61,753 nt of DNA from Pseudomonas phage Max, in the sequence record PP661416.1. One strand, given 5' to 3'. Shown one piece after another: positions 1-60,359 of this stretch. The notes beneath the pieces are model-generated. The model did no database searches. It had not been told where the DNA came from and saw only the letters and a list, made by a program, of their open reading frames with translations. The number at the start of each line of letters is the position of its first letter. Position 1 is the first letter of the stretch. Position numbers and translations under genes: made by a program.

Positions 1-111
1 ACGCCCAGTGTTGGCCTTCCTCCGGGAGGTAGATGGCCCGCCACATCATGGCGAACTCATCCCGAGCCGGTTGCTGCTGGAGGTTCGGGTGTTCGCTGGA
101 CAGTCGCCCGT
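1..111. repeat. terminal direct duplication: bases 1..111 are identical to 61643..61753 (circular or permuted genome, unit length about 61,642 bp)
   Basis: Exact 111-nt match between the two window ends, in frame with the DNA polymerase ORF. Confidence 0.95.
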
Positions 112-1210
112 AGGCAGCGCCCGCGGTCCCGTCGCTTTCGTCATCCTTCTGGCGGCGGAGCTGGTTGAACGTCCCGTGGAGGCGACCGTTCACCATGTGG
201 TCCCGGACGGAGCTGGCGAAGGTCGTGCGCAGCTTGTTCACCTTCCGGGCGCGTTCGAGGAGGTCCGCCACGGGGTGGTCGATTGATCCCAGCAGCTCCT
301 TGTCGATGTTGGGCTTGCCCTGGGAGGTCTTGTTCAGCTTGATGCCGATGTGTTCGAGGGCGGGGGCGATCACCTCCGGCTTCCAGACATCGCCCACGGC
401 GATCCGGTGGCCGGTGATCGACCGGACTTGGGCCAGGGCCTCCGTCTCCTTCTCCAGCGCCCAACGCTCAATCATGTCCAGGCGGTCGCAGTCGATTCTG
501 ACGCCCCGGCGGCGAAGGCCCGTGAGGATCGGGAGCAGCTTGGACTCCAGATTGTACACGCCCCAGAGGTCCTGCTCATCAATCTCCCGCTCCTGACGGC
601 GGAGGATGTTCAGAGGCAGGCGCGTGTCCTCCTCCGCGTACTTCCCGACAAACTTGGCCGGGAGCATCCACATGTCCTTCTTCGGGTCAATCCCATAATC
701 GACCGCGGCGGCGCGCAGCAGGGCTTCGTCCTTGCCGTGGAAGCCCCACCGCTCCGCGATAGCTTGCATGCTGTAGCTGTCGTGGAGTTCGCAGATCAGC
801 GGGTCAGCGATCTGGATGTCACGGAAGTAGCGGACCCGCTCGAACTCGATGCCGTCCCCGGCGAGGAAGTCCAGGTCATACGGGAGGTTGGCCCCCACGA
901 GGTCGCCGGTGAACACCTTTGCCTGGGCGCGGAGGTAGGCCAGCACGCCCTCCAGCGGGAGGTTGCCCCCGCCTTCGTGTCTGATGGGCAAGTACCCGCC
1001 CGGGCCGTCCTCGATTGCGAAGCTGATGCCGGTGATGTAGCTGTTCGGGCGACGGCCCGCCCCCGGCCCGAGTTTGCGCAGGTCCGGGTCCCGCGTCTCG
1101 CAGTCGATGGCGACCCGCTTGGCCCCCTCCCACGAGGGGAGGGTGCTGAGGTCCGGGGCCACCCAGTCGCTGGAGACGGTCGTGAACAGGGGTGGTTGGA
1201 GGTATGACAT
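1..1210 (-). CDS. DNA polymerase, family A (T7-like), N-terminal 3'-5' exonuclease plus palm start. It is the 5' part of a gene that wraps the circular junction and continues at 60858..61753
   Basis: ATG at 1208-1210 overlaps the upstream TGA. Translation MSYLQPPLF...VAIDCETRD (ExoI DxE)...YGRLSSEHPNLQQQPA reads in frame into the MMWRAIYLPEEGQHWA repeat shared with the window end. Confidence 0.9.
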   Translation of the reverse strand, partial: MSYLQPPLFTTVSSDWVAPDLSTLPSWEGAKRVAIDCETRDPDLRKLGPGAGRRPNSYITGISFAIEDGPGGYLPIRHEGGGNLPLEGVLAYLRAQAKVFTGDLVGANLPYDLDFLAGDGIEFERVRYFRDIQIADPLICELHDSYSMQAIAERWGFHGKDEALLRAAAVDYGIDPKKDMWMLPAKFVGKYAEEDTRLPLNILRRQEREIDEQDLWGVYNLESKLLPILTGLRRRGVRIDCDRLDMIERWALEKETEALAQVRSITGHRIAVGDVWKPEVIAPALEHIGIKLNKTSQGKPNIDKELLGSIDHPVADLLERARKVNKLRTTFASSVRDHMVNGRLHGTFNQLRRQKDDESDGTAGAAYGRLSSEHPNLQQQPARDEFAMMWRAIYLPEEGQHWA

Positions 1211-1596
1211 CAGGCTCCGACCTCCGCAATCATCTTGCGCAGGAGGTTCAGGGCCGCGGTCAGCTCCGGGTCGGACTCCCAGAAGGTGAGGATGCGGACC
1301 ACTTCGGCTTCGTCCTCCGTCAGCCCGTTCGCGGCGGCGAAGGCGTCCGGGGTAATGACCACGGGAGCGGAGCGGGGCAGCAGGACCCCGTTGCGGTACA
1401 GGTCCTGGACCTTCTCCACGTAGTGGATCGCCTTCTCAAGGTCCTGGCGCGGGTCCTCGTGCTTCTTGCGGTTGCGGGTCGCGTACTTGGTCGCGCAGCC
1501 TTCGGTGTAGCGGAGGCCGTTCAGCTCCACGTAGTCCCAGTGTTGGACGGGCGAGCGGTAGTGCTCACCGCCCACTTGCTTTTCGTTCACGCTCAT
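1210..1596 (-). CDS. DUF3310-family phage protein (GGEHY motif)
   Basis: KQVGGEHY motif, RBS AAGGAG 7 nt upstream, ATGA overlap with the polymerase start. Confidence 0.55.
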   Translation of the reverse strand: MSVNEKQVGGEHYRSPVQHWDYVELNGLRYTEGCATKYATRNRKKHEDPRQDLEKAIHYVEKVQDLYRNGVLLPRSAPVVITPDAFAAANGLTEDEAEVVRILTFWESDPELTAALNLLRKMIAEVGA

Positions 1597-1792
1597 CTTG
1601 TAACTCCTTCATCAGTTCCCGGAGCCGGAGTGTCTGCTGGCGGTACAAGTACCCAAAACACCCGTGCTCCCCGTTCATCATATCTGTATGGACCTTGCGG
1701 AGGTGCGCAGCGAGTTCTTCCACCGTGTCGAAGGCGTAGAACTTCAGCTGCGGGTCCTCCGCCCAATCACGTCGCAGCTTCTCCAAGTCCAT
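1565..1792 (-). CDS. hypothetical protein
   Basis: RBS GAGGAGG 9 nt upstream of the ATG. High GC3. 32-nt overlap with the next gene. Confidence 0.5.
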   Translation of the reverse strand: MDLEKLRRDWAEDPQLKFYAFDTVEELAAHLRKVHTDMMNGEHGCFGYLYRQQTLRLRELMKELQDERERKASGR

Positions 1793-2402
1793 CGCGCACC
1801 ACCTCCTCGAAGAAGTCCGAGAGACGGCGATGCGGCTGGTGCTTCGCTGCCACGTAGAAGGCGCGGACGGGTTCGGGCAGGCTACCCTCCAGGCCCCGCT
1901 TCTCCGTCACCGCCTCGCATGCCCTCCGCATGGCCGTGACCGCTTCGTTGCCCAGGGCTTCTTCCTCCCGGCACCACAGCCACAGTTCGAGGGTGTCCAC
2001 GGCCTTCAACCAGTCCTCCTCGTCAGGGAGAAGGCCCGGGAGCAGGCCCAGGGTCGCCAGCACGCGGCGTTCCGCCTCCTCATACACCTTCCCGAGTTCG
2101 GAGTGGGTCCACTTCGCCGGGGCCGGGATGTCGCCCAACCAACGCTCCGCGCAGTCGTGCCACTGGACCGCCTTGATCAGGTTCAGCGACGGGTGCGGGT
2201 GGAGCAGCAGCAGGAGGCTCACGGCCCCGTAGCTGTGCTGGGCGATGTTGTACTGACCGTGGTGCGGGACGATGTGGCACCGGCGGACCGTCCCGGCCTC
2301 CCGGGTCGCGGCGATCCGGGTCAGGAGCGGGCGGGCGGCGCGGCGGTTCAGCTCCTCCGCCTCGCGCTCCTCGTCATGAATCTTGCTCATCAGGCTTCCC
2401 AT
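1767..2402 (-). CDS. HD-domain 5'-deoxynucleotidase (YfbR-like)
   Basis: NIAQHSYGAVSLLLLLHP and QWHDCAERWLGDIPAP align with the YfbR motifs NVSEHSLQVAMVAHAL and MYHDASEVLTGDLPTP. RBS GAGGAG. Confidence 0.7.
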   Translation of the reverse strand: MGSLMSKIHDEEREAEELNRRAARPLLTRIAATREAGTVRRCHIVPHHGQYNIAQHSYGAVSLLLLLHPHPSLNLIKAVQWHDCAERWLGDIPAPAKWTHSELGKVYEEAERRVLATLGLLPGLLPDEEDWLKAVDTLELWLWCREEEALGNEAVTAMRRACEAVTEKRGLEGSLPEPVRAFYVAAKHQPHRRLSDFFEEVVRDGLGEAAT

Positions 2403-2414
2403 TGTTCCGTCTCC

Positions 2415-3470
2415 TCACTCATACGCCACGCCATCGTCCATCGCCCGGGCCTTGCGGGCCTCGAAGGCGGCGCGGCGGCGTTCGATCCATTCCACCCCGG
2501 CCAGCTTCCAGTCGGTGGCGGCGACGTTGTCCAGCTCCGCCAAGGCGGCGTCAAAGCGGGAGGGGTTGGAGGTCTGCTTGAAAGCCTTGTGGGCCTTCAA
2601 CATCGGGATCGCCACGCGACGGAAGAACGGGTCACGGAAGCCCACGGCGTCCGGCTCGCTCAGGAACATCATCAGCTCCTGGTTCCACTCCTCCGGGTCC
2701 GTGGACATCAGCGGGTAGGGCTCCGCGATCCCGGCGGCGTAGGGGTCGGGCGTCTCCTTCCCGGTCATCGGGTTGGCGGCGAGGTCCGCGAGCGGGGCGA
2801 CCTTGTTCAGCACCTCCTCATAGGCATGGAAGTTGGCGCTGACTTGGCGGTAGATGCCTTGTTCCACCCCGACACTCCGGGCGACGTACTCATGGAGGTA
2901 GCTGAAATGGACCGCGTTGGCCCCGTAGGCTCCCCAGATCAGGTCGTTGGAGCGGTTGGTCACGGTCATGTCCAGGCGACCGTCGCAGGCGATCTGGAAG
3001 ATGGCCTGAAGGTTGCACGGGAGGTCCTTGCCTTGGCGGCCCAGGTCCGCGTCCGCGTCCCACATCGACAGGACCTGGCGGCGGTCATCGTGGTTCGCCT
3101 TCAGGGCGGCGATGATCTTGGGCAGCTGGTCCTCGAAGAAGTGCTGGCGCCAGCGGAAGCCGTAGGCCCCGTGGAAGGTCAGGCCGTCATCCGAATAGCT
3201 GCGCATGCGATCCACGAAGCGGGCGACGTACTCCACGTCATTGCGTCCGCCCAGCATCCAGAGGCTTTCCATCAGGTGGAAGAAGGGGTTGGCGTCCCGT
3301 TCCGCCCAGAACAGCACGCGCTCCGCCGGGCGGAGGTACACGGTGGTGACGGGTTCCGGGAACATGAACACGGGGCCGTTGCGCGAGTCGCGGCGGACGC
3401 CCTCGAAGGACAGTTGATACAGGGCCTCCGGGAGGGCCTGTTGTACGTTGCGGGTCTTGATGACTTTCAT
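2415..3470 (-). CDS. thymidylate-synthase (ThyA) homologue, likely dUMP/dCMP 5-hydroxymethylase
   Basis: LPCNLQAIFQI (catalytic Cys in a PC context) and RSNDLIWGAYGANAVHF resemble ThyA LPPCH...RSxDxxLGxPFNIASYALL. Sits next to the modification genes. Confidence 0.75.
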   Translation of the reverse strand: MKVIKTRNVQQALPEALYQLSFEGVRRDSRNGPVFMFPEPVTTVYLRPAERVLFWAERDANPFFHLMESLWMLGGRNDVEYVARFVDRMRSYSDDGLTFHGAYGFRWRQHFFEDQLPKIIAALKANHDDRRQVLSMWDADADLGRQGKDLPCNLQAIFQIACDGRLDMTVTNRSNDLIWGAYGANAVHFSYLHEYVARSVGVEQGIYRQVSANFHAYEEVLNKVAPLADLAANPMTGKETPDPYAAGIAEPYPLMSTDPEEWNQELMMFLSEPDAVGFRDPFFRRVAIPMLKAHKAFKQTSNPSRFDAALAELDNVAATDWKLAGVEWIERRRAAFEARKARAMDDGVAYE

Positions 3471-3580
3471 TTCTTGTTAAACTCCACGAAGATGACGTTG
3501 CCGGTCCGGCGAAGGACACGGGGGCGAGGGAGCCAGACCAACCACCAGCTCCAGTACCACCAGAACGGCGAGAAGATCAC
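3467..3580 (-). CDS. possible 37-aa hydrophobic micro-protein (GTG start), translationally coupled to the ThyA-like gene
   Basis: AGGAGG 6 nt before the GTG. Trp-rich peptide (V)IFSPFWWYWSWWLVWLPRP... Its stop TGA overlaps the ATG of the next gene. Not in the ORF track (<60 aa). Confidence 0.25.
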   Translation of the reverse strand: MIFSPFWWYWSWWLVWLPRPRVLRRTGNVIFVEFNKK

Positions 3581-3592
3581 GGCCCCCTCCTG

Positions 3593-4153
3593 TTAAGCCG
3601 AAGCGGTCTGCGGCGGAAGGCCCAGGCGGGCGTTCAGGTCCTTGATCGGCAGCGCGATAGCCCGGGACGGCGATTCAACCGCGAAGGGGCGGGCGAACTG
3701 CTCCACCTCCGGCCAGACCTGAATCAGCTTGTTGACCGTGGTCACGCTTTCGAGGACGGCCCAGGCTCCGGTCTTGGCCTCCTCGCGCTCGCGCTTGAAC
3801 TGGGCGCGGTCCTTCAGGTAGGTGCGCAGCTTCTCGCCCAGCGGGTGGTCCGCCTTATAGACCTTGCCGGGGTTGTGGCTCCAGCAATCGGCCACGCGCT
3901 TCTTCTCCGGGAGGTCCAGCGAGTGGTAGGACTCCCCGACCACCTGGACGCGGATGCTGCTGCGGACTTCGAGGAAGCCGTTGGGCAGGGCGTACATGTG
4001 GGCGCGGATCGCCTCCGGGTACAGGTCGTTGTAGAACTCCAGCGCCAGCTCCTTCTCGCGGGCGTCCAGGGCCTTCTCGCGGTCGGAGAAGGAGTGGGCG
4101 AGGATCGCGTCACGGACCTGCTCGCGGATGTAATTGGACAGACGTACAGCCAT
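3593..4153 (-). CDS. hypothetical protein (track ORF trimmed to the internal ATG with RBS)
   Basis: GGAG 8 nt upstream of ATG-GCT-GTA (MAVRLSNY). The N-terminal 29 aa of the track ORF lack an RBS. Confidence 0.55.
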   Translation of the reverse strand: MAVRLSNYIREQVRDAILAHSFSDREKALDAREKELALEFYNDLYPEAIRAHMYALPNGFLEVRSSIRVQVVGESYHSLDLPEKKRVADCWSHNPGKVYKADHPLGEKLRTYLKDRAQFKREREEAKTGAWAVLESVTTVNKLIQVWPEVEQFARPFAVESPSRAIALPIKDLNARLGLPPQTASA

Positions 4154-4208
4154 GATGGTTTCTCCATTTCGTTGATGCCGCCGGAATGGTCCGGCGGCGA
4201 GGTTTCGA

Positions 4209-5180
4209 TCAGGCGAGGGTGGTTGCCTTGCGCCAGTCATACTTCGAGCGCATCTTGCCTTCGTTCAGGCGCACGCGCTCATACTTGTCGAACTCGCACA
4301 GCGTGTGTTCGATGTCCCGGGCCTCGAACCGCGGCCCCACGTGCGGGCTCCCGAGCTGCGGCGGTCCGAAGGTTTCGTTGAAGCCCCGGGCGTCCAGGGC
4401 GTTCAGCTCCTGCATCAGCTCGATCATTTCCGCGTTCGTCTGCTCCGGGCGGGGCTTCGCTGCGAGGTCGCGCCCGTACAGGCGGTTGAGCCCGCGGATC
4501 GCCCCGGGACCGGCGTTGGCCCAAGTCCAGATGTCCGGGGCGTTGCGCAGGTAGCGGGTGTGGCGGAGGTCGGTCACCACCTCATAGGCCATGAACGGTC
4601 CCCAGCCGATGTAGCGGGGCTGCTGGAACTTCTCCCAGACGGTTTCGAGCCGGTTGAAGGCCCGGAGGACGCCCGGAGTGGTTTCCAGCATCCGCTGCCA
4701 TTCCTCGCGGTCCTCCCAGAGACGGCCCAGGACAATCTCCGCGATGTAGCGGTGCTTGGTCCAGCTGTACCACTCCTTGGAGGGGTCTGACTCCGCGCGG
4801 ATCATGTAGGCTCCGGTGTACACCTTATCGCCGCGGACGGCGCGATGCTCCAGAGCGGTCGTGAGCCAGGAGGGCTCGAAGTCAGGGTTGTCGGGCCACT
4901 GCTTGGTCTGGATCAGCTCCGCGAGGGTATCCGGCCAATTGATGTAGCGGGCGATGGCGAGCATGAACCAAAGGTGGGGGTGGTCCGCGAAGGGCTGACG
5001 AATATGCTTGTCAACCCAGATCGTCACGGTGTCCAGCTCGCGGAAGATGTTACAGAACCGCCCGTCACGCAGAACCGGGTCCGCGGTCCAGGGGCCGGGC
5101 TTCCCGGCCTTGCGGTCCAAGTAGATGTCGTGCCGGGCCTTCATGAAGGCGGCGATGTCGTTGATGCGTGGGGTGGTCAT
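4209..5180 (-). CDS. aGPT-Pplase-like protein (alpha-glutamyl/putrescinyl-thymine pyrophosphorylase family), putative DNA base-modification transferase
   Basis: Real start MTTPRINDIA at 5180, set by the stop of the upstream kinase gene. The 167-aa R/G/P-rich N-terminal extension in the track is spurious. Trp-rich fold with GWGPFMAYEVVTDL, paralogous to 8162..9037. Confidence 0.55.
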   Translation of the reverse strand: MTTPRINDIAAFMKARHDIYLDRKAGKPGPWTADPVLRDGRFCNIFRELDTVTIWVDKHIRQPFADHPHLWFMLAIARYINWPDTLAELIQTKQWPDNPDFEPSWLTTALEHRAVRGDKVYTGAYMIRAESDPSKEWYSWTKHRYIAEIVLGRLWEDREEWQRMLETTPGVLRAFNRLETVWEKFQQPRYIGWGPFMAYEVVTDLRHTRYLRNAPDIWTWANAGPGAIRGLNRLYGRDLAAKPRPEQTNAEMIELMQELNALDARGFNETFGPPQLGSPHVGPRFEARDIEHTLCEFDKYERVRLNEGKMRSKYDWRKATTLA

Positions 5181-5191
5181 AGTCGGGGTCC

Positions 5192-5755
5192 TCAGCCCAA
5201 ATTCTCGATGACGGCCTTGATGTCCTTCAGGGCCGTCTCCCAGTGGATGTCGCGGACCGTCTCGCCGTCTGCCAGGGCCTTGTCGCGGACCCGGGCGATG
5301 GTGCGGTGCTTGTCGGCCACCTGGTCCTCCTTGATGGGCTTCCCGCCGTTGCGCTCCTGGATGCGCTTCAGGCAGACTTCGAGCGGCGTGTCCAGGAAGG
5401 CCCAGATCATTCCGCCGTTCGCCTTCGACCACTCCTGCCACGGACCGTAGATGGTACTGACCACCACGCCCTCGAACAGGACCGCCTTCACGTCCGGGTC
5501 CCGCCCAACCAGCTCCGCGACGGCCTTGGCGGCGGCTTGGGTCTTGATCCGGTCCAGACCGGCGGTGGTCGCTCCGGCGGCGGCGGGGGTGTAGTCCCCG
5601 ATGATGGCGATGCCGTCCGGGGCATACGTCACCGGGATCGGCTTGTGGTCCGGGACGATGACGTTGATGACGCGGCAAAGCGGATCGCGGGCCAGGCAGC
5701 GCAGCAGGGTGGTCTTGCCGGAGCCGTTACAGCCCCGCACGTTGATGTACTTCAT
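5192..5755 (-). CDS. P-loop kinase, candidate 5-hydroxymethyl-dU DNA kinase
   Basis: Walker A GCNGSGKTT at the N-terminus. GGAG RBS. Sits between the aGPT-Pplase-like and radical SAM genes. Confidence 0.6.
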   Translation of the reverse strand: MKYINVRGCNGSGKTTLLRCLARDPLCRVINVIVPDHKPIPVTYAPDGIAIIGDYTPAAAGATTAGLDRIKTQAAAKAVAELVGRDPDVKAVLFEGVVVSTIYGPWQEWSKANGGMIWAFLDTPLEVCLKRIQERNGGKPIKEDQVADKHRTIARVRDKALADGETVRDIHWETALKDIKAVIENLG

Positions 5756-5809
5756 CTTGGTTCTCCATTTCAGTTGAAAACGGCGGAGCCGGAGCCCCGC
5801 CCGGGTTGC

Positions 5810-7252
5810 TCAGTCAATCTGCGTGATCGGGATGATCTTGCGCTCGCCGCCGTCCTCCTCCGGCGGGGTCGGTTCCACGATCTTCTTGAAGTCGGGCGAG
5901 CGCAGAGCCTTCGCCGCCCCGAACAGTTCCGAACCGCAGCGGGGCTTGCCCTCGTTGTCGTCCGCGCAGTGGAGACAGCCGGTGGGGGCGCACTCCTTGA
6001 CCTCCTGGAAGGGCTGGCCCAGATCGGTCCGGGTGAACATCGGGACGCGCTGGCCGTGGCACTGGTCCGCGGTGATCATTTCACGGCCCATCGAAAGCCA
6101 GGCCGGTTCGCCGGTTCCGGGCTTCCCGCGGCGGTACTCATAGCACGTCGCGTAGGTCATGCCCAGCTCCGTCGCCCACTTCCGGTACAGCTGGTGGGCT
6201 TCGACCCGGTACGGCTCCGCGATGGTCTTTTGGGCTCCGGCCTGGTTCTCCGTGAACAGGTCCATGAAGGCTTTGGTGCGCTCCGGGCCGAACCGCTTGT
6301 GGAGACGTTCGATCATCGCCGGAGCCCAGCTGTAGCCCGCTTCCACAAACTTCACGATCACGTGGTTGTTGCCGACCGCGGCCAGGCGCTCGAACAGGTG
6401 GCGGATGTCGTCATGGGTGACGATCCCCGGGACCACCGGATTGACCTGAATGGACGTGTAGATGCCCTGACGGCGCAGCTCCGCGATTTCGTCAATGTGG
6501 TCCTGGAGGGAAATGGCCCCGGGGGACAACTTGTGCCAATCGCGGTCGTTGCCGGTGTTCAGCGACTTCTGGGCGTAGCTGTAGGGGTTCCGCTTCAGGA
6601 GGTCGATGGCCCAGGACGGGTAGCTGAGACGGCTCAGGAAGAAGATGGGCAGGCCCAACTCCACGAAGGCTTCCGCCCCCTGCTGGGTGTTGTGGTACAC
6701 GTCCTCAATCGGCAGGAAGGGGTCCGTGAAGCTGGAGAAGTAGCCCGCGGCGGAGGTCCGGGACTTCGAGAGCATGTTGCGGACCTGCTCGCCGTAGTTC
6801 ACCGGGACGCTGATGAGGCCGGTGCCGCGGTAGCCACGGAACCCGCTGTTGACGTAGCAGAAGGCGCAACCCACGGTGCAGTAGCCCCCATAAGGCTCCG
6901 TCAGGATCGCCTCGCTGAAGCAGGGGCGGGCGCGGGAGCCTCGCTTGTCGTTGTGCTTGTCCTGGTACCAGCCCTGAAGGGGCTTGGCGTTCGGGATGCG
7001 GATGTGCGGGAGGTAGGTGACGTCATTGAAGCCAAGATACACCTTGACCTCCTTCTTGTCTTCATCCTTCGCGTTGCGGACCATACCCACCTTGGCCATG
7101 CGGAACTTCGCGCGCATGCCGGTCAGCGGGTCATCCTCCTCCTCGATTGGGCCCAGGAACTCCCGTTGGTTCGGGTCCGGGCGCATGAAATACTTGTAAG
7201 CCTCCTGAGCGGCTTCGCCGGTTTCTTCATTCAGCCATGCTGCGTGGTCCAT
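5810..7252 (-). CDS. radical SAM enzyme
   Basis: CTVGCAFCY is a CxxxCxxC 4Fe-4S/SAM motif. 480 aa. Downstream of the promoter at about 7279..7306. Confidence 0.8.
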   Translation of the reverse strand: MDHAAWLNEETGEAAQEAYKYFMRPDPNQREFLGPIEEEDDPLTGMRAKFRMAKVGMVRNAKDEDKKEVKVYLGFNDVTYLPHIRIPNAKPLQGWYQDKHNDKRGSRARPCFSEAILTEPYGGYCTVGCAFCYVNSGFRGYRGTGLISVPVNYGEQVRNMLSKSRTSAAGYFSSFTDPFLPIEDVYHNTQQGAEAFVELGLPIFFLSRLSYPSWAIDLLKRNPYSYAQKSLNTGNDRDWHKLSPGAISLQDHIDEIAELRRQGIYTSIQVNPVVPGIVTHDDIRHLFERLAAVGNNHVIVKFVEAGYSWAPAMIERLHKRFGPERTKAFMDLFTENQAGAQKTIAEPYRVEAHQLYRKWATELGMTYATCYEYRRGKPGTGEPAWLSMGREMITADQCHGQRVPMFTRTDLGQPFQEVKECAPTGCLHCADDNEGKPRCGSELFGAAKALRSPDFKKIVEPTPPEEDGGERKIIPITQID

Positions 7253-7278
7253 AGTTCAACTCCTCATCTATTGCGAAA

Positions 7279-7306
7279 AAGTCTAGTGCCTTACCCGGAA
7301 GAAGTA
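7279..7306 (-). promoter_or_regulatory. sigma70-like promoter (minus strand: -35 TTTACT, 17-bp spacer, -10 TAGACT), member of the repeated promoter family
   Basis: Plus-strand gaagaagtaaag...agtcta. Intergenic between 7324 and 7252. Confidence 0.5.
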
Positions 7307-7323
7307 AAGCACTATGAATTGGG

Positions 7324-8160
7324 TCACTCCCCGATGTTCCAGAACACGATGGGGCGTGGATGGACGGAAGCCAGGTTGAGCGGGTCACTCAGCCACTTCC
7401 AAGCCTTCAGATCATAGAACGGGTTGCAGGGGAACGGGGCGGAGGCGTCCCGGGCCGCGTCCGCGTACCCGTAGCCCTCGTCAATGAACTTGATCCGGTC
7501 GCCCAAGGTCAGGCCCGCGGCCTTCTCGATGTACTCCCGGGTGGCGTCCTGGCTCCGCGAGTATCCCATGTGGAGGATGACGTTGTAGTTGCGGAGCAGG
7601 CCCGCCTCCTCGAAGCCCTTGAGCACCCCGGCGGCGACCGTCCCCGAGCTGATACTGATGACCAGGGTCCCGGAGTCCGGGAGGTGCGGGGCGGTGCGGA
7701 CGGCCTCCGCGGCGTTCTCCGGGATCGACTCCGGGAGCTTCAGGGCGTTCGGCATCAGGTAGCTGTCGTGGTAGTTCTCCCGCAGGTGCTTCTTGGCCGT
7801 ATGGTACAGGATCGCGGAGCGGCCCGCCGGGATGTCCACGAGGTCCGCCCCGAGCTGGCGAGCGTGCTGCTGTTGGACGCGCGGGGCGTCCGCGGCCCCG
7901 TCGCGCTTGAAGCGGGGCCAGTAGTCCACGGCCTGTTTCCCGAGCTGCTGGCAAACGTAGGCGACCGCCCAGCCCGCCTTCGAGTGGTACGTGTCCAGAC
8001 AGCCGATGGTGGTCTCAGGCCGGTTCTTGATATGGGCGACAACTCCGCGAATCTTGCTGAAGGACGGACCCGGGAGCGGGGCGCACAGGTCCTCCCGCTT
8101 CACGAGGATCGGGACCCCGTTGAGCTCATAGGTTTCGACCGGGGTGTTGTTGACGATCAT
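7324..8160 (-). CDS. PLP-dependent enzyme, fold type II (ACC deaminase / D-cysteine desulfhydrase-like)
   Basis: VKREDL...SFSKIRG lysine motif. Start reset to the ATG at 8160 (AAGGAG RBS, ATGA-type junction with the upstream stop at 8162). Confidence 0.6.
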   Translation of the reverse strand: MIVNNTPVETYELNGVPILVKREDLCAPLPGPSFSKIRGVVAHIKNRPETTIGCLDTYHSKAGWAVAYVCQQLGKQAVDYWPRFKRDGAADAPRVQQQHARQLGADLVDIPAGRSAILYHTAKKHLRENYHDSYLMPNALKLPESIPENAAEAVRTAPHLPDSGTLVISISSGTVAAGVLKGFEEAGLLRNYNVILHMGYSRSQDATREYIEKAAGLTLGDRIKFIDEGYGYADAARDASAPFPCNPFYDLKAWKWLSDPLNLASVHPRPIVFWNIGE

Positions 8161-8161
8161 C

Positions 8162-9046
<885 letters not shown>

Positions 9047-9310
9047 TCACAAGTATGCGTGACTGATTTTCCCGGACAGGTCCTTCAGGATGTCCCAATC
9101 AGAGAATTGGCGACTGAAGGAAGGCCCCATGCGGACTTCTTTGTTGACGTGAATACGGGAATGGACCGTCAGCCACTTGCTGTCGCCGTCCTCCGTGATC
9201 ACAATGTGAATCCACGGAGGTAGCTTGAAGGGCTCCATCCTGTATCCCCGCTCCGCCGGGTACTCCACCCGGCGGAGCAGGTAGTCATAGGTGCGCTCCG
9301 AGGCTCCCAT
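9047..9310 (-). CDS. hypothetical protein
   Basis: Internal ATG (MGASERTYDY) with a GAGG RBS, packed tightly between neighbouring genes. Confidence 0.4.
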   Translation of the reverse strand: MGASERTYDYLLRRVEYPAERGYRMEPFKLPPWIHIVITEDGDSKWLTVHSRIHVNKEVRMGPSFSRQFSDWDILKDLSGKISHAYL

Positions 9311-9320
9311 GACCCTTGCC

Positions 9321-10004
9321 TCAGTCGGCCAGGCGGGTCTGGCGGGCATCAGCCTTCGGGGCGGACTTCAGCGGCTTGTGGGCCGGGATCGCGTGGCCTT
9401 CCGGGACCACGATGTGGAACCGCTCAGTGCCGTCCGCGGCGAAGGCGGAGCGGACCCCGTAGCCCTTCAGCTTCATGTCCCAGCCGAAGCCGGAGCGCAC
9501 GGTGGCTTCGGTCCAGGGCTTGTTGCCGCCACTCAGGGCTTCGATCAGTTCAGCCATGGTCGCACCGTTCGGGCGGGACAGCATGTCCAGGAGCATGGCC
9601 TGCTTCGAGCCCTCGCGGCAGGGGATCGGGGCGTGGCCCGGGGCGGCCAGGTTGGTGCCGCGCGGGGCGCGGGCCTTCTTCTCCTCCGCGGACTTCGGAG
9701 CCTTCTGGGCCTTCGGAGCAGCGACGGGGGCGGGGGTTGCGGTTTCGTTCACGGTTTCGACCTTCTGGGGTTCGGCCTGCGCCTCAGCCTCAACTTCCGG
9801 GTGCGCTTCGGCATAACGCTGAAGCATCTTCCAGGTGCGGGCAATGGCGGTGGTCTTGTCGGCAAAGCGGCGGACGTTCGGGACGGACTCACCGTTGCGG
9901 AAGGTGCCGATGACTTCGTTGTACAGCTCGACCAGGGCCGGGCCGGACAGCTCGCTCAGGGAGGCTTCGGTGTAGGCGACGTTGTTGAAGTTGATGGCGT
10001 TCAT
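9321..10004 (-). CDS. hypothetical protein, possible winged-helix domain; first gene downstream of the promoter at about 10056..10084
   Basis: 227 aa. Ala/Pro/Lys-rich linker, then a C-terminal MLLDMLSRPNGATMAELIEAL segment. Confidence 0.5.
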   Translation of the reverse strand: MNAINFNNVAYTEASLSELSGPALVELYNEVIGTFRNGESVPNVRRFADKTTAIARTWKMLQRYAEAHPEVEAEAQAEPQKVETVNETATPAPVAAPKAQKAPKSAEEKKARAPRGTNLAAPGHAPIPCREGSKQAMLLDMLSRPNGATMAELIEALSGGNKPWTEATVRSGFGWDMKLKGYGVRSAFAADGTERFHIVVPEGHAIPAHKPLKSAPKADARQTRLAD

Positions 10005-10055
10005 GGTAGGCTCCTTTTCTGGGGTTGAGGTGCGATCTTGTTCGACCGTGAGAGA

Positions 10056-10084
10056 ATCTTAACCCCAGCCCCCGAAGAAGTAAA
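10056..10084 (-). promoter_or_regulatory. sigma70-like promoter (-35 TTTACT, 17 bp, -10 TAAGAT)
   Basis: Plus-strand ccccgaagaagtaaag motif. Intergenic. Confidence 0.45.
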
Positions 10085-10103
10085 GTGGTTTGACTAAACT
10101 TTT

Positions 10104-10610
10104 TCAGGTCCCCGTCCGAAGGCCAACAACCGTTGGACGGCGGAGGGCGAACCGTTGTACAACTTCTTCCCAGAAGGCCCGGGCGGCGTCCTCGTGCCCA
10201 GGCTTCCTGTACCAATGGTTGCGCCCCGAGGTGTGCGGAACCACAGCGACCTCGAAGCCCCAGCGATCATCCGCAAACCACTGGTGGAAGTCCAGGTGCT
10301 GGGCCGGATAGCCGAAAGCCTCCGCGACGTTCCGCCCAACGAGGATGACGTGCCGACCGCCCAACAAGGGCTTCATCGCGGCTGCGGCAATCCCCGCGTC
10401 CCGGGCGGGCCACTTGTCGTCCCGCTTCCAGCGCCCAGGGAAGGTGTGGAGCAGGTTGGTGCGGTCGAAGGTCTTGAGGTAGTCCTTGGGCGATAGGCCC
10501 GCCAGCTCCGCCAGACGCCCTCCCGCGGAGGACCGCGGGAGGGGAGCCAGGGGCCGGTCCGGGTCCGTGTTAGGTCCTGGTGCTTGGCCGATCAGCAGGG
10601 GCTTGTTCAT
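10104..10610 (-). CDS. uracil-DNA glycosylase superfamily-like protein
   Basis: LLIGQAPGPNT (GxxPG motif A) and VVPHTSGRN (HPS-like motif B). RBS GGAGG. Confidence 0.45.
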   Translation of the reverse strand: MNKPLLIGQAPGPNTDPDRPLAPLPRSSAGGRLAELAGLSPKDYLKTFDRTNLLHTFPGRWKRDDKWPARDAGIAAAAMKPLLGGRHVILVGRNVAEAFGYPAQHLDFHQWFADDRWGFEVAVVPHTSGRNHWYRKPGHEDAARAFWEEVVQRFALRRPTVVGLRTGT

Positions 10611-10755
10611 CTTCGGGTTCCTCCATTTCTTGGGTGACGTTCAGTTTGAGGGTCCGCTCCGGGACCGGGATGGCCCATTCAGCAAGGCGCATCCCGGTCA
10701 TGAGCAAGAACCCGGCGGCGATCAGCAAGACCGCCTTCAGGCTCAGTTCTTTCAC
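10570..10755 (-). CDS. possible 61-aa membrane micro-protein (GTG start overlapping the RNR stop, GTGA)
   Basis: GGAGGGAG 5 nt before the GTG. TM segment AVLLIAAGFLLMTGM. Confidence 0.3.
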   Translation of the reverse strand: MKELSLKAVLLIAAGFLLMTGMRLAEWAIPVPERTLKLNVTQEMEEPEDEQAPADRPSTRT

Positions 10756-12575
10756 TCGCACTCCCTCCGTCCCGTGGCCGGGTCGATGCGACACTGGCTT
10801 GCCGGCTCCTCCGCCGGGGCGTCCGCTTCGGGCTCGCCGCCGTCATCCTTCACCACGAGGATGCCCGACCGCTTCCCGCCCAGGCGGAAGGTCGTGCAGC
10901 CCTTCGCCCCGCCTTCCCAGGCGCTCACATACACGTTCTTGAAGTCCTCCCAGCTGATGTCGGAAGGCACGTTGCAGGTCTTGCTCACCGCGGAATCGAC
11001 CCGCTGGGCGGCGACGGTCAGGGCGGCGACGTGTTCCTGGACGGTGACGCGGGAGCAAGCCTTGCCGCGGACCCCGAACACGCGGGCACCGTAGTCCTCC
11101 ACCGTCTCCACCCGCGGGCCGCTGAACTCGATCACGGTGCGGTCGAAGCTGTAGGCGAACACCGGCTCAATCCCGGAGCTGACGTTGTCGGCGCACAGGC
11201 TGATGGTCCCGGTCGGGGCGATGGAAGTGAGGTGGGAGTTGCGGATGCCGTATTTGGCGATGGCGTCCCGCACGTCCTCGCGGAGGGTCTTGATGAACTG
11301 GCCCTGCAGGTACTTGTCCTTGTCGAACTTCGGGAAGGAGCCCTTGACCTTGGCGATGTGGGCGCTGGCCAGGTAGGACTCATCACGCAGCGTGTCCAGC
11401 ACCTCCGCCTCGAAGGCGAGGAAGGCGGGCGAACCGTACTCATGGCCCAGGGCTTCGGCAGCGTTGGCCAGGCCGGTGATCCCGAGGCCCATGCGGCGCT
11501 TGTCCTTGGCTTCCTGCTTCTGCTGCGGCAGCGGATAGATCGCGCGATCCACCACGTTGTCCATCGCGCGGACCACCTGCGGGATGTCCTCGCGGTACTG
11601 GTCCCAGTCGAAGGCGTAGCGGCCCGCCCCGTCCTTGAAGATGTACTTGACCAAGTTGAAGGAGCCCAACAAGCAGGCACCATAGGGCGGGAGCGGCTGC
11701 TCACCGCAGGGGTTGGTGGCGGCGATGGTCTCGCAGTACCAGAGGTTGTTCATGCGGTTGATCGCGTCGATAAACAGCACGCCCGGCTCCGCCCAGTCCC
11801 AGGTCCCGCGCATGATCGCGTCCCACAGCGCCCGGGCGTCCACTTCGCGGTAGGTCCGGCCCTCGAAGGTGAGGGGGAACGGCTCGCCGGAGGCGACGCA
11901 CTCCATGAACTTGTCGGTGATGGCGACGGAGACGTTGAAGCCGGTCAGCTTCAGGGTCTGCTGAAGGGACATGACCAACTGCTGCTTCTGGGCTCCTTCC
12001 GGGAGTTCGGCCACGAGGTCCCAGAGCGGCTGAACGTCCTTCCCGGGTTGCTTGGCGTGAATGAACTCCTCGATGTCGGGATGGTCCACGCGCATCACCC
12101 CCATCTGGGCTCCGCGGCGATGGCCGGAGGAGGCGACGCACTTGCAGATCGCGTCGAAGATGTGCATGAAGCTGATGGGGCCGGAGGAGTGGGACTGGAG
12201 CTTGCGGATCAGGTCGCCGCGAGGACGGAGGGTGCTGAAGTCATAGCCGATCCCGCCGCCCATCCGCATCGTGGCTGCGGCTTCCGCGGCCCGGACCATG
12301 ATGGAGCCTTCGCCGTCCACGAAGCTGTCGTTGATCGTCCCGGAGACATAGCAGTTGTAGGGTGTGACTTGGCGGGTGGAGCCCATCGCGGACTGGATGC
12401 GGCCCGCCGGGAGGAAGCGCATGCCCAGGAGGGCGTCCCGGAAGTCCGCGAAGTGCTGGTCATCGTCCTTCAGGGCCGCGGCGATCCGGTTCATGGCCTC
12501 GCGGAAGGACTCGCCGCTGCCGCGGTACTTCTGGGCGTGTAGTTCTTGTGAGTAGGGTACTTGAGGACCGTGCAT
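10752..12575 (-). CDS. nrdJ: ribonucleotide reductase, class II (adenosylcobalamin-dependent, NrdJ-like)
   Basis: About 607 aa. Start MHGPQVPYSQELHAQKYRG with AAGGAG 9 nt upstream. Class II RNR-like length and architecture. Confidence 0.8.
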   Translation of the reverse strand: MHGPQVPYSQELHAQKYRGSGESFREAMNRIAAALKDDDQHFADFRDALLGMRFLPAGRIQSAMGSTRQVTPYNCYVSGTINDSFVDGEGSIMVRAAEAAATMRMGGGIGYDFSTLRPRGDLIRKLQSHSSGPISFMHIFDAICKCVASSGHRRGAQMGVMRVDHPDIEEFIHAKQPGKDVQPLWDLVAELPEGAQKQQLVMSLQQTLKLTGFNVSVAITDKFMECVASGEPFPLTFEGRTYREVDARALWDAIMRGTWDWAEPGVLFIDAINRMNNLWYCETIAATNPCGEQPLPPYGACLLGSFNLVKYIFKDGAGRYAFDWDQYREDIPQVVRAMDNVVDRAIYPLPQQKQEAKDKRRMGLGITGLANAAEALGHEYGSPAFLAFEAEVLDTLRDESYLASAHIAKVKGSFPKFDKDKYLQGQFIKTLREDVRDAIAKYGIRNSHLTSIAPTGTISLCADNVSSGIEPVFAYSFDRTVIEFSGPRVETVEDYGARVFGVRGKACSRVTVQEHVAALTVAAQRVDSAVSKTCNVPSDISWEDFKNVYVSAWEGGAKGCTTFRLGGKRSGILVVKDDGGEPEADAPAEEPASQCRIDPATGRRECE

Positions 12576-12635
12576 TTTGCGAGTCTCCTTGAAGGGTTGA
12601 GGGCTTTCTATCATATCGTTGCTCCTGTTCTTGGG

Positions 12636-13829: not shown

Positions 13830-13850
13830 GATGATCGTTCTCCGTTTCTG

Positions 13851-13880
13851 ATGAAAAGAAGGGGGCCACGAAGGCCCCCT
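13851..13880 (-). terminator. putative intrinsic terminator (GGGGGCC-TTCGT-GGCCCCC + TTCTTTTCA on the minus strand) between the SSB-like and helicase genes
   Basis: Perfect 7-bp GC stem, 5-nt loop, T-rich tail read on the coding strand. Confidence 0.45.
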
Positions 13881-13930
13881 GAAGGTACGGCCAGAGGGGG
13901 CGGGCCGTCCGGGTCGGTCCTCCCGGTAGA

Positions 13931-53099: not shown

Positions 53100-53572
53100 A
53101 GCTGACCTCCGTGTAGTTCCCCGAGGCGCTGATTCAGCCACGCGACCTCCTTGGGCAGGAGCTGTTCCTGGTGGTCCACGAGGTAGCGCAGGCGGCGCAA
53201 CTGTTCCTGGTTCTCGTTGGACAGCTTCGCCACGTTGCTTTCGAGGCGCTTCAGCTTCGCGGGTACGTCCTTGGCGAGTTCCGCCATCAGCCGGCACTCC
53301 TCCCCGAAGGCGCGGAGGGCGTCCCGGGACGCGGCCACGGGGTCGATGTTGTCCCCGTAGTTGTTGCCCAGGTACTCCGCGCAAGCGGCTCCCGCCGTCC
53401 CGATCAGCTGGAGGAGGTGCTGCTGGCTCGCGCATTGGCCCGGGTCGATGTCCGTGGAGGACTTCAAGCCGGGGCGCTTCTGGCTGTACACGAGGACCGT
53501 CACTTGGTACTTGCGGGGGTCCTCCGGGTTGCGCCCGAGGCGGGCCTGGACGCCCTGGATGGTAGTGGTCAT
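53096..53572 (-). CDS. hypothetical coiled-coil protein
   Basis: Start MTTTIQGVQ, ATGA-coupled to MazG. Confidence 0.45.
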   Translation of the reverse strand: MTTTIQGVQARLGRNPEDPRKYQVTVLVYSQKRPGLKSSTDIDPGQCASQQHLLQLIGTAGAACAEYLGNNYGDNIDPVAASRDALRAFGEECRLMAELAKDVPAKLKRLESNVAKLSNENQEQLRRLRYLVDHQEQLLPKEVAWLNQRLGELHGGQL

Positions 53573-54174
53573 GCCGGTTCTCCTTCGCACAGGGGGTTGG
53601 CTTTCCAGAAGGCGCGCAGCTCGCGGCCCAGGTAGATGTTCACGCCGTCCTGGCCCTCGAAGAAGCCCCCGGCCCGGAAGGTCGGCACCACGGCGTCCTG
53701 CGCCCCGGCGGCGATCCCGTCCGCGGATTGAGCCCAGTTCAGGGCTTGATCGGCGGAGTCGAAACCCTGCGCCGTGAAGAAGCTGCCGGAGTCGCTGATG
53801 ATGTAGAACTTGTCCAACTCCATTTCCAGACCGCTTCCGGGGTCCAGGAAGGTTTCCACGTGCTGCATCTTCCCGGTCGGGCTCCGTCCCCAGGAGCGGT
53901 TGCGGTTCACGCTCATCTTGTAGTCCACCACGGTCTGGAGGTCCACGTTCAGCTTCTCCGCGACCTGGGCGAGCATGATGAACACGTCCGCGCACTCCTT
54001 CTGGAGTTCCTGGACCAACTCCTGGTCCATGTCCGCGACCGGGACGGCGGCGACGGTAGCGAGGCCCGCGACCAGCTCCGCCACCTCCACGTTCATCCGC
54101 GCGGCGACTTCCGCGGGGTGCTTCGGGCCGAAGGTGTCGTCAGCCCAGCGGGTGATTGATTCTTGGGTTTCCAT
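53569..54174 (-). CDS. MazG-like nucleoside triphosphate pyrophosphohydrolase
   Basis: TRWADDTFG...EVAELVA...ELQKECADVFIMLAQVAEKLNVDL. Confidence 0.7.
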   Translation of the reverse strand: METQESITRWADDTFGPKHPAEVAARMNVEVAELVAGLATVAAVPVADMDQELVQELQKECADVFIMLAQVAEKLNVDLQTVVDYKMSVNRNRSWGRSPTGKMQHVETFLDPGSGLEMELDKFYIISDSGSFFTAQGFDSADQALNWAQSADGIAAGAQDAVVPTFRAGGFFEGQDGVNIYLGRELRAFWKANPLCEGEPA

Positions 54175-54513: not shown

Positions 54514-54855
54514 TCAGTGCTTCGAGGCCGTCATGGACTGGAGGAGGTCGCCCAAGGAGGGGCGGGCGTCCTCCGCCTCGCGCTTGCTCAGGAAGGCGCA
54601 GCCGTGGTCATCCAGATAGCTCGCGTCCAGTTCCCACTCGCCCAACTCCTCCATCGGGAGGTCCGCGGCGTTCATGAGCACCGGCCAGGCCCGGCTCATC
54701 TGCTCCTGGGCGTCCCGCCCGAGTTCGTTCAGTCGCTCCTGAAACTCGCGTTCCAGCTCCGCCTTCTGGGCGTGGGCTTGTTGGTGGATGCCGTGGACGG
54801 CCCGGGCGGCGGTCAGGGCGTCTCCGGTGAGACGGATGGTGGTCTTGCGGCTCAT
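54514..54855 (-). CDS. hypothetical protein
   Basis: 113 aa. Confidence 0.45.
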   Translation of the reverse strand: MSRKTTIRLTGDALTAARAVHGIHQQAHAQKAELEREFQERLNELGRDAQEQMSRAWPVLMNAADLPMEELGEWELDASYLDDHGCAFLSKREAEDARPSLGDLLQSMTASKH

Positions 54856-56030: not shown

Positions 56031-56068
56031 GTTGTGACTCCTTTTCTCAGGGTTGTTGAAACAGAATC

Positions 56069-59522: not shown

Positions 59523-59905
59523 GTACAAATCTCCTTGGTTCTTGGAAGGCGTGTCCAACGTGCGACACAGACCTCATACAGACGTTCTCGCGGAACCCGG
59601 CCCAGCATAGCAGCGGCCACCGCTCCATCGAATAGCAACCACTCAGTCTCCCCGACCTTCAGCAGGAGGAAGGCCCGGCCCCCGGCCCTGCGGCGACGGG
59701 TCAGCCAGGTCCTCTGCTGGCGGGTGAAGTGGTCCACTCGAAGCGGTCCGCCCCTGGGCGGCCAGCGTTCAGCGAACTTCAATTCAATCCAGCCCTGGTT
59801 GTAGTTCACATCCGGGGTCCCGGGCACAATGGGGTTCTCCACGCGCACCGGGTCCAGCGACCGGATGACGGGGCGGAGGGAGTCCCACATTGCGGCTTCA
59901 GACAT
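59507..59905 (-). CDS. VRR-NUC domain nuclease (PD-(D/E)xK)
   Basis: GTPDVNYNQGWIELKF...QQRTWLTRRRRAGGRAFLL matches the VRR-NUC pattern G.PD...G...ELK...S..Q..W. Confidence 0.55.
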   Translation of the reverse strand: MSEAAMWDSLRPVIRSLDPVRVENPIVPGTPDVNYNQGWIELKFAERWPPRGGPLRVDHFTRQQRTWLTRRRRAGGRAFLLLKVGETEWLLFDGAVAAAMLGRVPRERLYEVCVARWTRLPRTKEICTCLLQ

Positions 59906-60359
59906 CTACCCACCTCACTTCGATGTTGTAACGGCGGGCGACTTCCAAAGCCTCATCAATGCGTTGATTCCACTCAGCAACCCACCCCGGATCGCGGCCC
60001 GAGTAGTCGATGCCCGGGAAGGCGACCCGCTTCACGCCCGCCTTCCCCGCGGCCTCCATACAGTTCGGACAGCAGGGGAAAGAAGTATAGAGCGTGAAGC
60101 CAGTCGCAGGCGAGCCCAGAAAGTTGAGTGCGTTGACCTCTGCGTGAACAACGTGCTGGTATTTGTACCCGCGGTCAGCGTACAACTCCGGCGAGTCATC
60201 GTGCCCGGGCGGGAAGCCGTTGAACCCGGTCGAAGCCACGCTGTTGTTGGGCCGAACCAGGACGGCTCCGACCTTCGTGGAAGGGTCCTTGCTCCAGCCC
60301 GCGACGTGTTGGGCCAGCCCAACATAGCGGCGGTCCCAGCGGTCTTGACGTTCGCTCAT
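59898..60359 (-). CDS. dCMP deaminase
   Basis: HAEVNAL...PCCPNCM zinc-binding motifs. Confidence 0.85.
   Translation of the reverse strand: MSERQDRWDRRYVGLAQHVAGWSKDPSTKVGAVLVRPNNSVASTGFNGFPPGHDDSPELYADRGYKYQHVVHAEVNALNFLGSPATGFTLYTSFPCCPNCMEAAGKAGVKRVAFPGIDYSGRDPGWVAEWNQRIDEALEVARRYNIEVRWVDV

Follow-up and report, generated by a model that had tools for sequence, protein, structure and literature searches.

Gene content of the cluster

The window, that is, the whole 61,753-nt stretch of DNA that was analysed, is the complete, circularly permuted genome of Max, an M6-like Yuavirus of Pseudomonas aeruginosa. Positions 1767–10610 (Table 1) align to Pseudomonas phage M6 as one piece across the full 8844 bases at 98.4% DNA identity, and to phages Pa-L and Pa-S over all 8844 bases at 99.4%. 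Because the span aligns in one piece (coverage of at least 80%) to 51 phage genomes, its genes are not chance open reading frames. The encoded proteins are 96.8–100% identical to M6 gp48–gp59, and gene-for-gene synteny with M6 runs from gp46 to gp62 and is also seen with phage AN14. This likeness upholds the original prediction, which had recognized a toolkit for 5-hmdU hypermodification with M6 as the model phage.

Table 1. Genes of the thymidine hypermodification cluster and associated nucleotide genes in Max
Gene product	Coordinates	Strand	M6 homologue (identity)	Basis
DUF3310 protein (weak assignment)	1210..1596	-	gp61	phrog matches
HD-domain YfbR-like 5'-deoxynucleotidase	1767..2402	-	gp59 (99.5%)	PF12917
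Thymidylate-synthase-family (ThyA-like) enzyme	2415..3470	-	gp58 (98.9%)	PF00303
Small ORF, 37 aa	3467..3580	-	gp57 (97%)	annotated in M6 and AN14
Nmad5 protein	3593..4153	-	gp56 (98.9%)	PF18757, E 1.4e-33
HMUDK_hel / aGPT-Pplase clade 1 protein	4209..5180	-	gp55 (98.5%)	PF18723
5-hmdU DNA kinase	5192..5755	-	gp54 (100%)	PF18748
Radical SAM N-alpha-glycinylthymine isomerase	5810..7252	-	gp53 (99.6%)	Cys motifs
Fold-type II PLP-dependent decarboxylase	7324..8160	-	gp52 (96.8%)	PF00291
Glycine:DNA transferase (AADT / aGPT-Pplase clade 2)	8162..9037	-	gp51 (99.0%)	PF18724
DUF7300 protein	9047..9310	-	gp50 (96.6%)	PF23974, E 5e-25
DUF3489-containing protein	9321..10004	-	gp49 (98.2%)	PF11994, E 2.2e-9
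UDG-superfamily protein	10104..10610	-	gp48 (100%)	AF2 model + Foldseek
Class II (adenosylcobalamin-dependent) ribonucleotide reductase	10752..12614	-	gp46 (99.5%)	TIGR02504
Candidate MazG-like all-alpha NTP pyrophosphohydrolase (weak assignment)	53569..54174	-		phrog and PDB matches
dCMP deaminase	59898..60359	-	gp65	PF00383, E 1.8e-16; mapped from SN1_010

The minus-strand positions and family assignments originally given for the cluster genes agree with an open reading frame check, profile HMMs and, for the UDG-like protein, a structure match. The ThyA-like, kinase, PLP and HD proteins and both Pplase-like proteins fall in the expected Pfam families; the radical SAM and UDG-like proteins lie below their Pfam cutoffs, and their assignments are borne out by a Cys motif and by AF2/Foldseek, respectively.

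Several genes would serve the supply of precursors. The ThyA-like protein matches Thymidylat_synt (E 7e-18) and contains the catalytic P-C152-N and R-S-N-D motifs. Its best solved relative is the hydroxymethylase MilA (1e-17), before thymidylate synthases (4e-10 or weaker), and from the M6 chemistry we infer for it, and equally for M6 gp58, a role as a dUMP hydroxymethylase and not a methylase. The HD protein (33.6 bits, cutoff 25.9; H..HD motif at 43–83) may act in the pre-replicative branch as a dTMP/dNMP phosphatase, and 44 of 80 related viral loci have its gene next to that for the ThyA-like protein. Three further genes had been expected elsewhere in the genome. This holds for the dCMP deaminase, but the ribonucleotide reductase (NrdJ_Z, 518.4 bits, above the equivalog cutoff of 399.95) directly abuts the span, and the evidence for MazG is weak. 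The MazG-like protein, which has no Pfam match, resembles phrog_3301 (pyrophosphatase, 7.6e-6) and, partially, MazZ (PDB 7ody, 1.3e-6, residues 59–107, ~50 residues), and related records label it MazG/pyrophosphatase; it is possibly a dTTPase/dUTPase. The DUF3310 protein matches phrog_236 ('nucleotide kinase', 2.8e-10) and phrog_11324 (6.4e-7) and reaches 21.9 bits for Pfam DUF3310, under the cutoff of 24; it is a weak candidate for a nucleotide (dNMP) kinase, with 5-hmdUMP as a possible substrate.

The gp55, Nmad5, UDG-like, DUF7300 and DUF3489 genes travel with the cluster as conserved passengers. The genes for the Nmad5, DUF7300 and DUF3489 proteins were absent from the original prediction. 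In 13 of 80 related loci the first is flanked by the gp55-like and ThyA-like genes, the second is given here with the M6 start codon, and the product of the third is annotated in AN14 as a helix-turn-helix protein. The small ORF has a GTG start in Max and no Pfam match. For the UDG-like protein, Pfam UDG is under cutoff (E 0.002) and PF03167 is carried by its homologues. Its AF2 model (pLDDT 93) matches UdgX, family 4 UDG and MUG/TDG with a Foldseek probability of 1.0 (UdgX, 3.5e-5; TM 0.52–0.64 over the matches). The UDG superfamily is marked by an alpha/beta fold, a motif A of GxxPG and an HPS-like motif B; the Max protein carries G-Q-A-P-G and H-T-S-G-R-N, which are conserved in 67 relatives. 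The model thus places it in the uracil-DNA glycosylase superfamily, as a predicted glycosylase.

Enzymes predicted to act on DNA after replication

The pathway reconstituted for M6 comprises a presumed hydroxymethylase, a 5-hmdU DNA kinase, a transferase and radical SAM plus PLP tailoring (PMC8989533). In vitro reconstitution covered the reactions of gp54, gp51, gp53 and gp52 (Lee et al., 2018, 2021), and together these proteins yield 5-(2-aminoethyl)-dU (5-NedU). The first of them, gp54, phosphorylates 5-hmdU in DNA to 5-PmdU (PMC8989533). The Max kinase scores 65.1 bits against its Pfam family (cutoff 27, E 7.7e-18) and has the Walker A motif GCNGSGKT at G8–T15.

M6 gp51 converts 5-PmdU and glycine to N-alpha-GlyT, and amino acid transfer in M6 is carried out only by this clade 2 protein (PMC8989533). 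The Max transferase matches Pfam ADDT, formerly aGPT-Pplase2 (E 1.3e-46, 159.6 bits), and, among solved structures, 25qc (5.8e-200) and, over its full length, PaMx11 gp46 (8z2m, 2.2e-91). Residues Asp24, Trp155, Lys159, Glu243, Thr244 and Cys247 are identical to those in the active site of the latter enzyme (PUGT), were also aligned to the YuA AADT structure and are invariant in 59 relatives. In a clade-2 transferase, Cys is the nucleophile, Glu/Thr bind metal and Trp/Lys/Asp bind glycine. The name pyrophosphorylase, used in the original prediction, is no longer apt: current Pfam drops it, the intermediate, 5-PmdU, is a monophosphate, and the protein works as an amino acid:DNA transferase.

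The radical SAM gene sits between the transferase and kinase genes, as in M6, whose gp53 converts N-alpha-GlyT to C-alpha-GlyT (PMC8989533). Its product contains the CxxxCxxC motif as C125-x3-C129-x2-C132 and C-terminal Cys residues 398, 421, 426, 429 and 439 for a second Fe-S cluster. The Pfam Radical_SAM score (PF04055, 22.3 bits) is under the cutoff of 29.5, as expected for the divergent SPL-like branch, and SPL-like rSAM families also match weakly. The PLP enzyme scores 38 bits for PALP, above the cutoff of 35, and its Lys36, within S-F-S-K-I-R-G, corresponds to the proposed Schiff-base lysine of M6 gp52, which converts C-alpha-GlyT to 5-NedU with loss of CO2 (PMC8989533).

The few substitutions that separate Max from M6 in the cluster fall mostly at the C-terminus of this PLP enzyme, the least conserved of the enzymes; eight of the nine positions at which it differs lie in residues 259–269, and the radical SAM enzyme carries M330T and G412D. 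These changes could in principle alter the end product, for example by halting the pathway at C-alpha-GlyT, but neither Lys36 nor the PALP core is altered, and no Cys ligand is missing. The region is moreover 98–99.4% identical to those of dozens of viable M6-like phages from independent isolations, so that the patch, whose variant region recurs in other such phages, is common standing variation. We therefore regard a product different from that of M6 as extremely improbable.

Between the PLP and radical SAM genes, a gap of 71 nt contains a perfect 13-bp hairpin and, after it, a U-rich tract (7284–7314, minus strand); the element is possibly an internal terminator, an attenuator or a processing site. 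Across the region, terminator-like sites do not outnumber those in shuffled sequence.

The gp55-family protein

The presence of a second, clade 1 Pplase-like protein had raised the suggestion of two chemically distinct modifications, in which this protein would be a second group transferase that puts another appendage on 5-PmdU. It matches HMUDK_hel, formerly aGPT-Pplase1 (E 1.6e-55), has an HhH-GPD glycosylase-like fold and contains an invariant Cys295. The predicted fold of the family is nearest to PUGT, a Cys-dependent glycine:DNA transferase; the absolutely conserved Cys, adjoined by conserved Glu, Asp and Lys, belongs to an I-E-x-x-L-C motif, which is co-linear with the glycine transferase's catalytic E243..C247, and F196 and E/Q200 take the place of Trp and Lys at the glycine-binding positions. 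These features would suit a transferase for another donor, yet 5-NedU is the sole non-canonical nucleoside reported in M6 virion DNA (PMC5889632), and gp55 is dispensable for N-alpha-GlyT formation in vitro, with gp55-containing lysates giving no added product (PMC8989533). In all 15 of the kinase-less gp55-family loci examined, a glycosyltransferase neighbour replaces the kinase, and 5-PmdU would therefore be lacking there. A second modification is thus very unlikely. The known pathway is linear and has one product; the alternative suggestion of a two-step appendage was closer to the truth, in that isomerization by the radical SAM enzyme and decarboxylation by the PLP enzyme act in turn on the same glycine adduct.

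Of 80 viral loci, 70 show the gp55 family linked to the ThyA-like hydroxymethylase, and the family has a far wider distribution than the kinase/transferase pair. It is possible, if rather doubtful, that its members are enzymes or readers in their own right on 5-hmdU-containing DNA and not helper domains of the kinase. In M6 virion DNA, 5-NedU is found at ~30% of T (PMC5889632); the remaining ~70% of such positions in M6-type DNA are plain T, and how the unchosen residues revert to thymine was described in 2018 as unknown. The gp55 protein may convert unchosen 5-hmdU (or 5-PmdU) back to thymine via an exocyclic-methylene intermediate, as in the transferase, or it may select positions for modification. 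Either role, if true, could explain the restoration of plain thymine or the choice of target sites in partly modified phages, and this uncharacterized protein is the one thread in the cluster worth pursuing.

Proposed pathway and relation to other phages

Taken together, region 1767–10610 is very likely a thymidine hypermodification cluster that makes 5-NedU on roughly a third of T, as in M6. Its gene content, order and orientation equal those of the M6 5-NedU cluster (gp51–gp59; Lee et al., 2018, PNAS; Lee et al., 2021, NAR), every catalytic residue checked is the same, all catalytic motifs checked are intact, and no sequence feature among the motifs, identities and synteny of the cluster contradicts this explanation. 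Before replication, dCMP deaminase would supply dUMP, the gp58 homologue would convert it to 5-hmdUMP, the HD nucleotidase and the MazG-like pyrophosphatase would probably deplete dT nucleotides, and the phage family A polymerase would incorporate 5-hmdUTP into DNA. The subsequent steps have been demonstrated for M6 proteins 97–100% identical to those of Max. The gp54 kinase would turn 5-hmdU in DNA into 5-phosphomethyl-dU; Cys247 of the gp51 transferase would attack C6, expelling phosphate to give an exocyclic methylene, to which the alpha-amine of free glycine would be added (N-alpha-GlyT); the gp53 isomerase would rearrange the N linkage to one through C-alpha (C-alpha-GlyT); and gp52 would strip CO2 to yield 5-NedU. 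The outcome would be a single modification on roughly a third of T, one that protects DNA against about half of the type II restriction enzymes tested.

Related pathways diverge in the later steps or in the amino donor. The PaMx11 and PAO1_Ab18 clusters share the route as far as N-alpha-GlyT, with its kinase and glycine:DNA transferase steps, but PaMx11 has an FAD-dependent lyase and an acetyltransferase in place of the radical SAM and PLP genes, and the products are 5-NmdU and 5-AcNmdU; Max encodes both the radical SAM and the PLP enzyme and so should make the M6 product. Salmonella phage ViI (5-NeOmdU), PhiW-14 (putrescinyl-T) and SP10 (glutamyl-T) likewise proceed from a dUMP hydroxymethylase through 5-hmdU in DNA to a 5-HMUDK kinase and a clade-2 transferase, but these unrelated phages use serine, putrescine and glutamate as donors, and their genes are scattered and not tightly clustered. 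ViI also employs a PLP decarboxylase but lacks the radical SAM isomerase step.

M6 and its close relatives modify thymine to escape restriction enzymes; 5-NedU DNA blocks 48% of the type II enzymes tested, in a TG/TC context, and M6 DNA resists FspI and SacI. By analogy, 5-NedU should be present in Max DNA, which would withstand around half of the common type II restriction enzymes and show shifted nanopore signals at T, an expectation of practical value for sequencing, cloning and phage therapy with M6-like phages. Judged by its sequence, the gene set would be the already characterized M6-type system, adding one isolate to a well-studied group and nothing new. That isolate is separate from M6 and nearer to Pa-L and Pa-S; outside the cluster, its genome differs from those of its relatives by small cassettes that are present or absent.

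Gene content of the hypermodification cluster

Genes are numbered here after their homologues in Pseudomonas phage M6. The genes of the cluster lie exactly at the coordinates originally predicted, all on the minus strand, and a profile-HMM check placed each named cluster protein in the family proposed for it (see table); the original prediction did not mention the Nmad5 gene. Because the Pfam match of the UDG-like protein is weak, its placement in the UDG superfamily draws in addition on the presence of PF03167 in its relatives and on an AF2 model (pLDDT 93) that matches UdgX, family 4 UDG, and MUG/TDG with a Foldseek probability of 1.0. When single sequences were searched against the PDB, no match emerged for the kinase, the radical SAM and PLP enzymes, gp55, or the UDG-like protein. 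In NCBIfam, the ribonucleotide reductase (RNR) alone scored above cutoff, and no other cluster protein matched a family at that level.

Genes and other features of the cluster and of the remainder of the window
Feature	Position	Strand	M6 homologue	Identity to M6	Evidence or description
DUF3310-like protein	1210-1596	-	gp61		DUF3310 just below Pfam cutoff; PHROG families labelled 'nucleotide kinase', 2.8e-10
YfbR-like HD 5'-deoxynucleotidase	1767-2402	-	gp59	99.5%	Pfam 33.6 bits, above cutoff
Thymidylate synthase family (ThyA-like)	2415-3470	-	gp58	98.9%	Pfam E 7e-18
Nmad5	3593-4153	-	gp56	98.9%	Pfam E 1.4e-33
HMUDK_hel (formerly aGPT-Pplase1)	4209-5180	-	gp55	98.5%	PF18723, E 1.6e-55
5-hmdU DNA kinase	5192-5755	-	gp54	100%	PF18748, 65 bits
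Radical SAM enzyme	5810-7252	-	gp53	99.6%	Weak Pfam score; CxxxCxxC at residues 125-132
Hairpin	7284-7314	-			Perfect 13-bp stem, 5-nt loop, then U-rich tract
PALP, fold-type II PLP enzyme	7324-8160	-	gp52	96.8%	Pfam, above cutoff
Amino acid:DNA transferase (formerly aGPT-Pplase2)	8162-9037	-	gp51	99.0%	PF18724, E 1.3e-46
DUF7300	9047-9310	-			Pfam profile search
DUF3489	9321-10004	-			Pfam profile search
UDG-superfamily protein	10104-10610	-	gp48	100%	Weak Pfam match, E 0.002; relatives and AF2 model
RNR, class II	10752-12614				NrdJ_Z equivalog, 518 bits (cutoff 400)
Possible MazG-like pyrophosphatase	53569-54174				
Segment missing from phage SN1	54608-55939				1.3 kb
409-aa ORF	54852-56081	-			phrog_8203 (unknown function)
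dCMP deaminase	59898-60359				

A scan of positions 1-14000 for promoters and terminators gave results at chance level, and no tRNA genes were found. The hairpin, which lies in the 71 nt that separate the PLP enzyme gene from the radical SAM gene, could be an internal terminator or a site of RNA processing; a wider region of 86 nt around it folds no better than shuffled sequences (z -0.97).

A predicted 5-NedU pathway shared with phage M6

M6 proteins have been used to reconstitute the post-replicative pathway (PMC8989533). The kinase gp54 uses ATP to place one phosphate on the hydroxymethyl group of 5-hmdU residues in DNA, yielding 5-phosphomethyl-dU (PMC8989533). Acting alone, gp54 reaches a conversion of only ∼23%. 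Together, gp51 and gp54 are necessary and sufficient to join free glycine through its alpha-amine, forming N-alpha-GlyT, in a gp51 mechanism that involves essential Cys and Glu residues and an exocyclic methylene intermediate (PMC8989533). The radical SAM enzyme gp53 then isomerises this adduct to C-alpha-GlyT, which the PLP enzyme gp52 decarboxylates, only after isomerisation, to 5-(2-aminoethyl)-dU (5-NedU) (PMC8989533).

Every checkable residue is kept in the window proteins. The kinase retains its Walker A motif and the PLP enzyme Lys36, and the radical SAM cysteines and a C-terminal Cys cluster in the gp53 homologue agree with the report of two Fe-S clusters. Residues D24, W155, K159, E243, T244, and C247 are kept in the transferase, and these six match glycine-binding, metal-binding, and nucleophilic positions in the crystal structure of PaMx11 gp46 (PMC11472151). 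The observation of a hypermodification gene set is confirmed and its interpretation supported. The system itself is not new, its biochemistry having been worked out in a phage with 98% identity.

The whole cluster (1767-10610) aligns with M6 in a single piece at 98.4% identity and with Pa-L and Pa-S at 99.4% over all 8844 bases; 51 phage records match it with a coverage of 80% or more. Its genes follow the same order as M6 gp46-gp62 and as AN14. A novel variant of the cluster was rejected on the basis of the one-piece alignment to M6, in which genes are neither gained nor lost. Nine differences separate the gp52 homologue from M6 gp52, and eight of them fall within residues 259-269 at the C-terminus (window 7324-7420), which suggests recombination or an indel-compensated variable segment and not scattered drift.

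The presence of two Pplase-like proteins together with two tailoring enzymes had been taken to allow two chemically distinct modifications. This proposal is not supported: the pathway is linear with a single product and amino acid transfer is carried out by clade 2 (gp51) only; M6 gp55, the clade 1 protein, can be omitted from the in vitro reconstitution (PMC8989533). BLASTP detects no significant similarity between the two proteins, and profile-profile alignment of the clade 1 and clade 2 families with hhalign gives a probability of 2.5%.

In M6 virions, 5-NedU accounts for ∼30% of T (PMC5889632), and M6 DNA resists 48% of >200 type II enzymes, with TG and TC enriched at resistant sites (PMC6449724). 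FspI and SacI fail to digest M6 DNA. The 5-NedU nucleoside has a mass of 271 Da (m/z 272.1). Across both strands of the whole window, 72% of all T is followed by G or C, far more than the fraction modified in M6; a TG/TC preference alone is therefore insufficient to define the modified sites.

Nucleotide supply genes and genome layout

By analogy with PhiW-14 and SP10, we infer a pre-replicative half that would comprise the dCMP deaminase, the ThyA-like hydroxymethylase, and the HD nucleotidase; a MazG-like pyrophosphatase and a DUF3310 nucleotide kinase may also belong to it. The nearest solved relatives of the ThyA homologue are hydroxymethylases (MilA) and not thymidylate synthases, which fits its predicted role. 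The gp61 homologue is, from its family matches, a candidate dNMP kinase for 5-hmdUMP. DUF3310 genes also occur near a ThyA-like gene in two kinase-less viral loci.

Three further supply genes had been expected outside the cluster. The dCMP deaminase was located there. The RNR is of class II as proposed, judging by its NrdJ_Z score and by the lack of any beta-subunit gene in the annotation of phage SN1, but its gene directly abuts the cluster. A gene corresponding to the proposed MazG does lie elsewhere, but the assignment is partially and weakly supported, and Pfam returned no MazG match for it. In the SN1 record, the homologous RNR is annotated as 'class Ib alpha subunit'; class II is preferred instead.

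Positions 1-111 and 61643-61753 are identical, so the window represents a circularised or permuted complete genome of 61,642 unique bases; its first base falls within the gene for DNA polymerase, a homologue of M6 gp62. The window is colinear with SN1 save for a few cassettes. The segment missing from SN1 carries the 409-aa ORF, which has no Pfam match and is rich in G-x-G near its N-terminus (FGTGLKYAI). An 'ATP-binding protein' is listed at some point in the matched 13.5-kb region of a related record. The SN1 GIY-YIG nuclease (SN1_007), SN1_061, and SN1_064 are absent from the window.

The gp55 family

Any novel reading is confined to the accessory gp55-family protein. A literature search found no function for clade 1/HMUDK_hel or Nmad5 in such a context. 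The family is very large, with 3435 representatives at 50% identity. Two residues, C295 and K299, do not vary across 110 diverse members, and four others (E296, D298, F196, and D204) are almost invariant. The I-E-x-x-L-C and G-x-G-x-F motifs line up with the catalytic and glycine-binding motifs in clade 2. No fused kinase domains were recognised in longer gp55 relatives. As a guess, gp55 could restore thymine from unmodified 5-hmdU, a step called unknown by Lee et al. 2018, or select target sites.

Of 80 IMG/VR loci encoding a gp55 relative, 70 have a ThyA-like gene at a distance of 1-2.5 kb. The kinase was found in 41/80 and the clade 2 transferase in 32/80, and among the 31 loci flanked by 6 kb or more in each direction, 18 have a ThyA-like gene with neither; these searches used M6-like seeds and one round of profile building, so a very divergent kinase or transferase may have escaped detection, except in the 15 loci that were also examined with Pfam. 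In those 15 non-redundant kinase-less loci, the gp55 relative adjoins a TET-associated glycosyltransferase (14/15) or a GT1 enzyme (1/15). None has a Pfam match to the kinase family (0/15), and neither kinase nor clade 2 transferase was found in them. This cassette also encodes a ThyA-like protein (15/15), a PD-(D/E)XK nuclease (13/15), and often a 2OG-Fe(II) oxygenase, a dCTP deaminase/dUTPase, and an HD nucleotidase. It looks like a separate modification system, probably producing glycosyl-5-hmdU.

Taken together, the kinase loci and the kinase-less glycosyltransferase loci indicate that the gp55 family accompanies the predicted hydroxymethylase across two chemistries, phosphorylation with amino acid transfer or glycosylation, and the current Pfam name 'kinase helical domain' fits this distribution poorly. 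Part of this pairing had been described before for pelagiphages (PMC9599517). The 15 loci with the glycosyltransferase cassette lie on low-GC, marine-type viral contigs; they are L048, L052, L056, L070 (for example, L070:10001-12680), and 11 others from IMG/VR.
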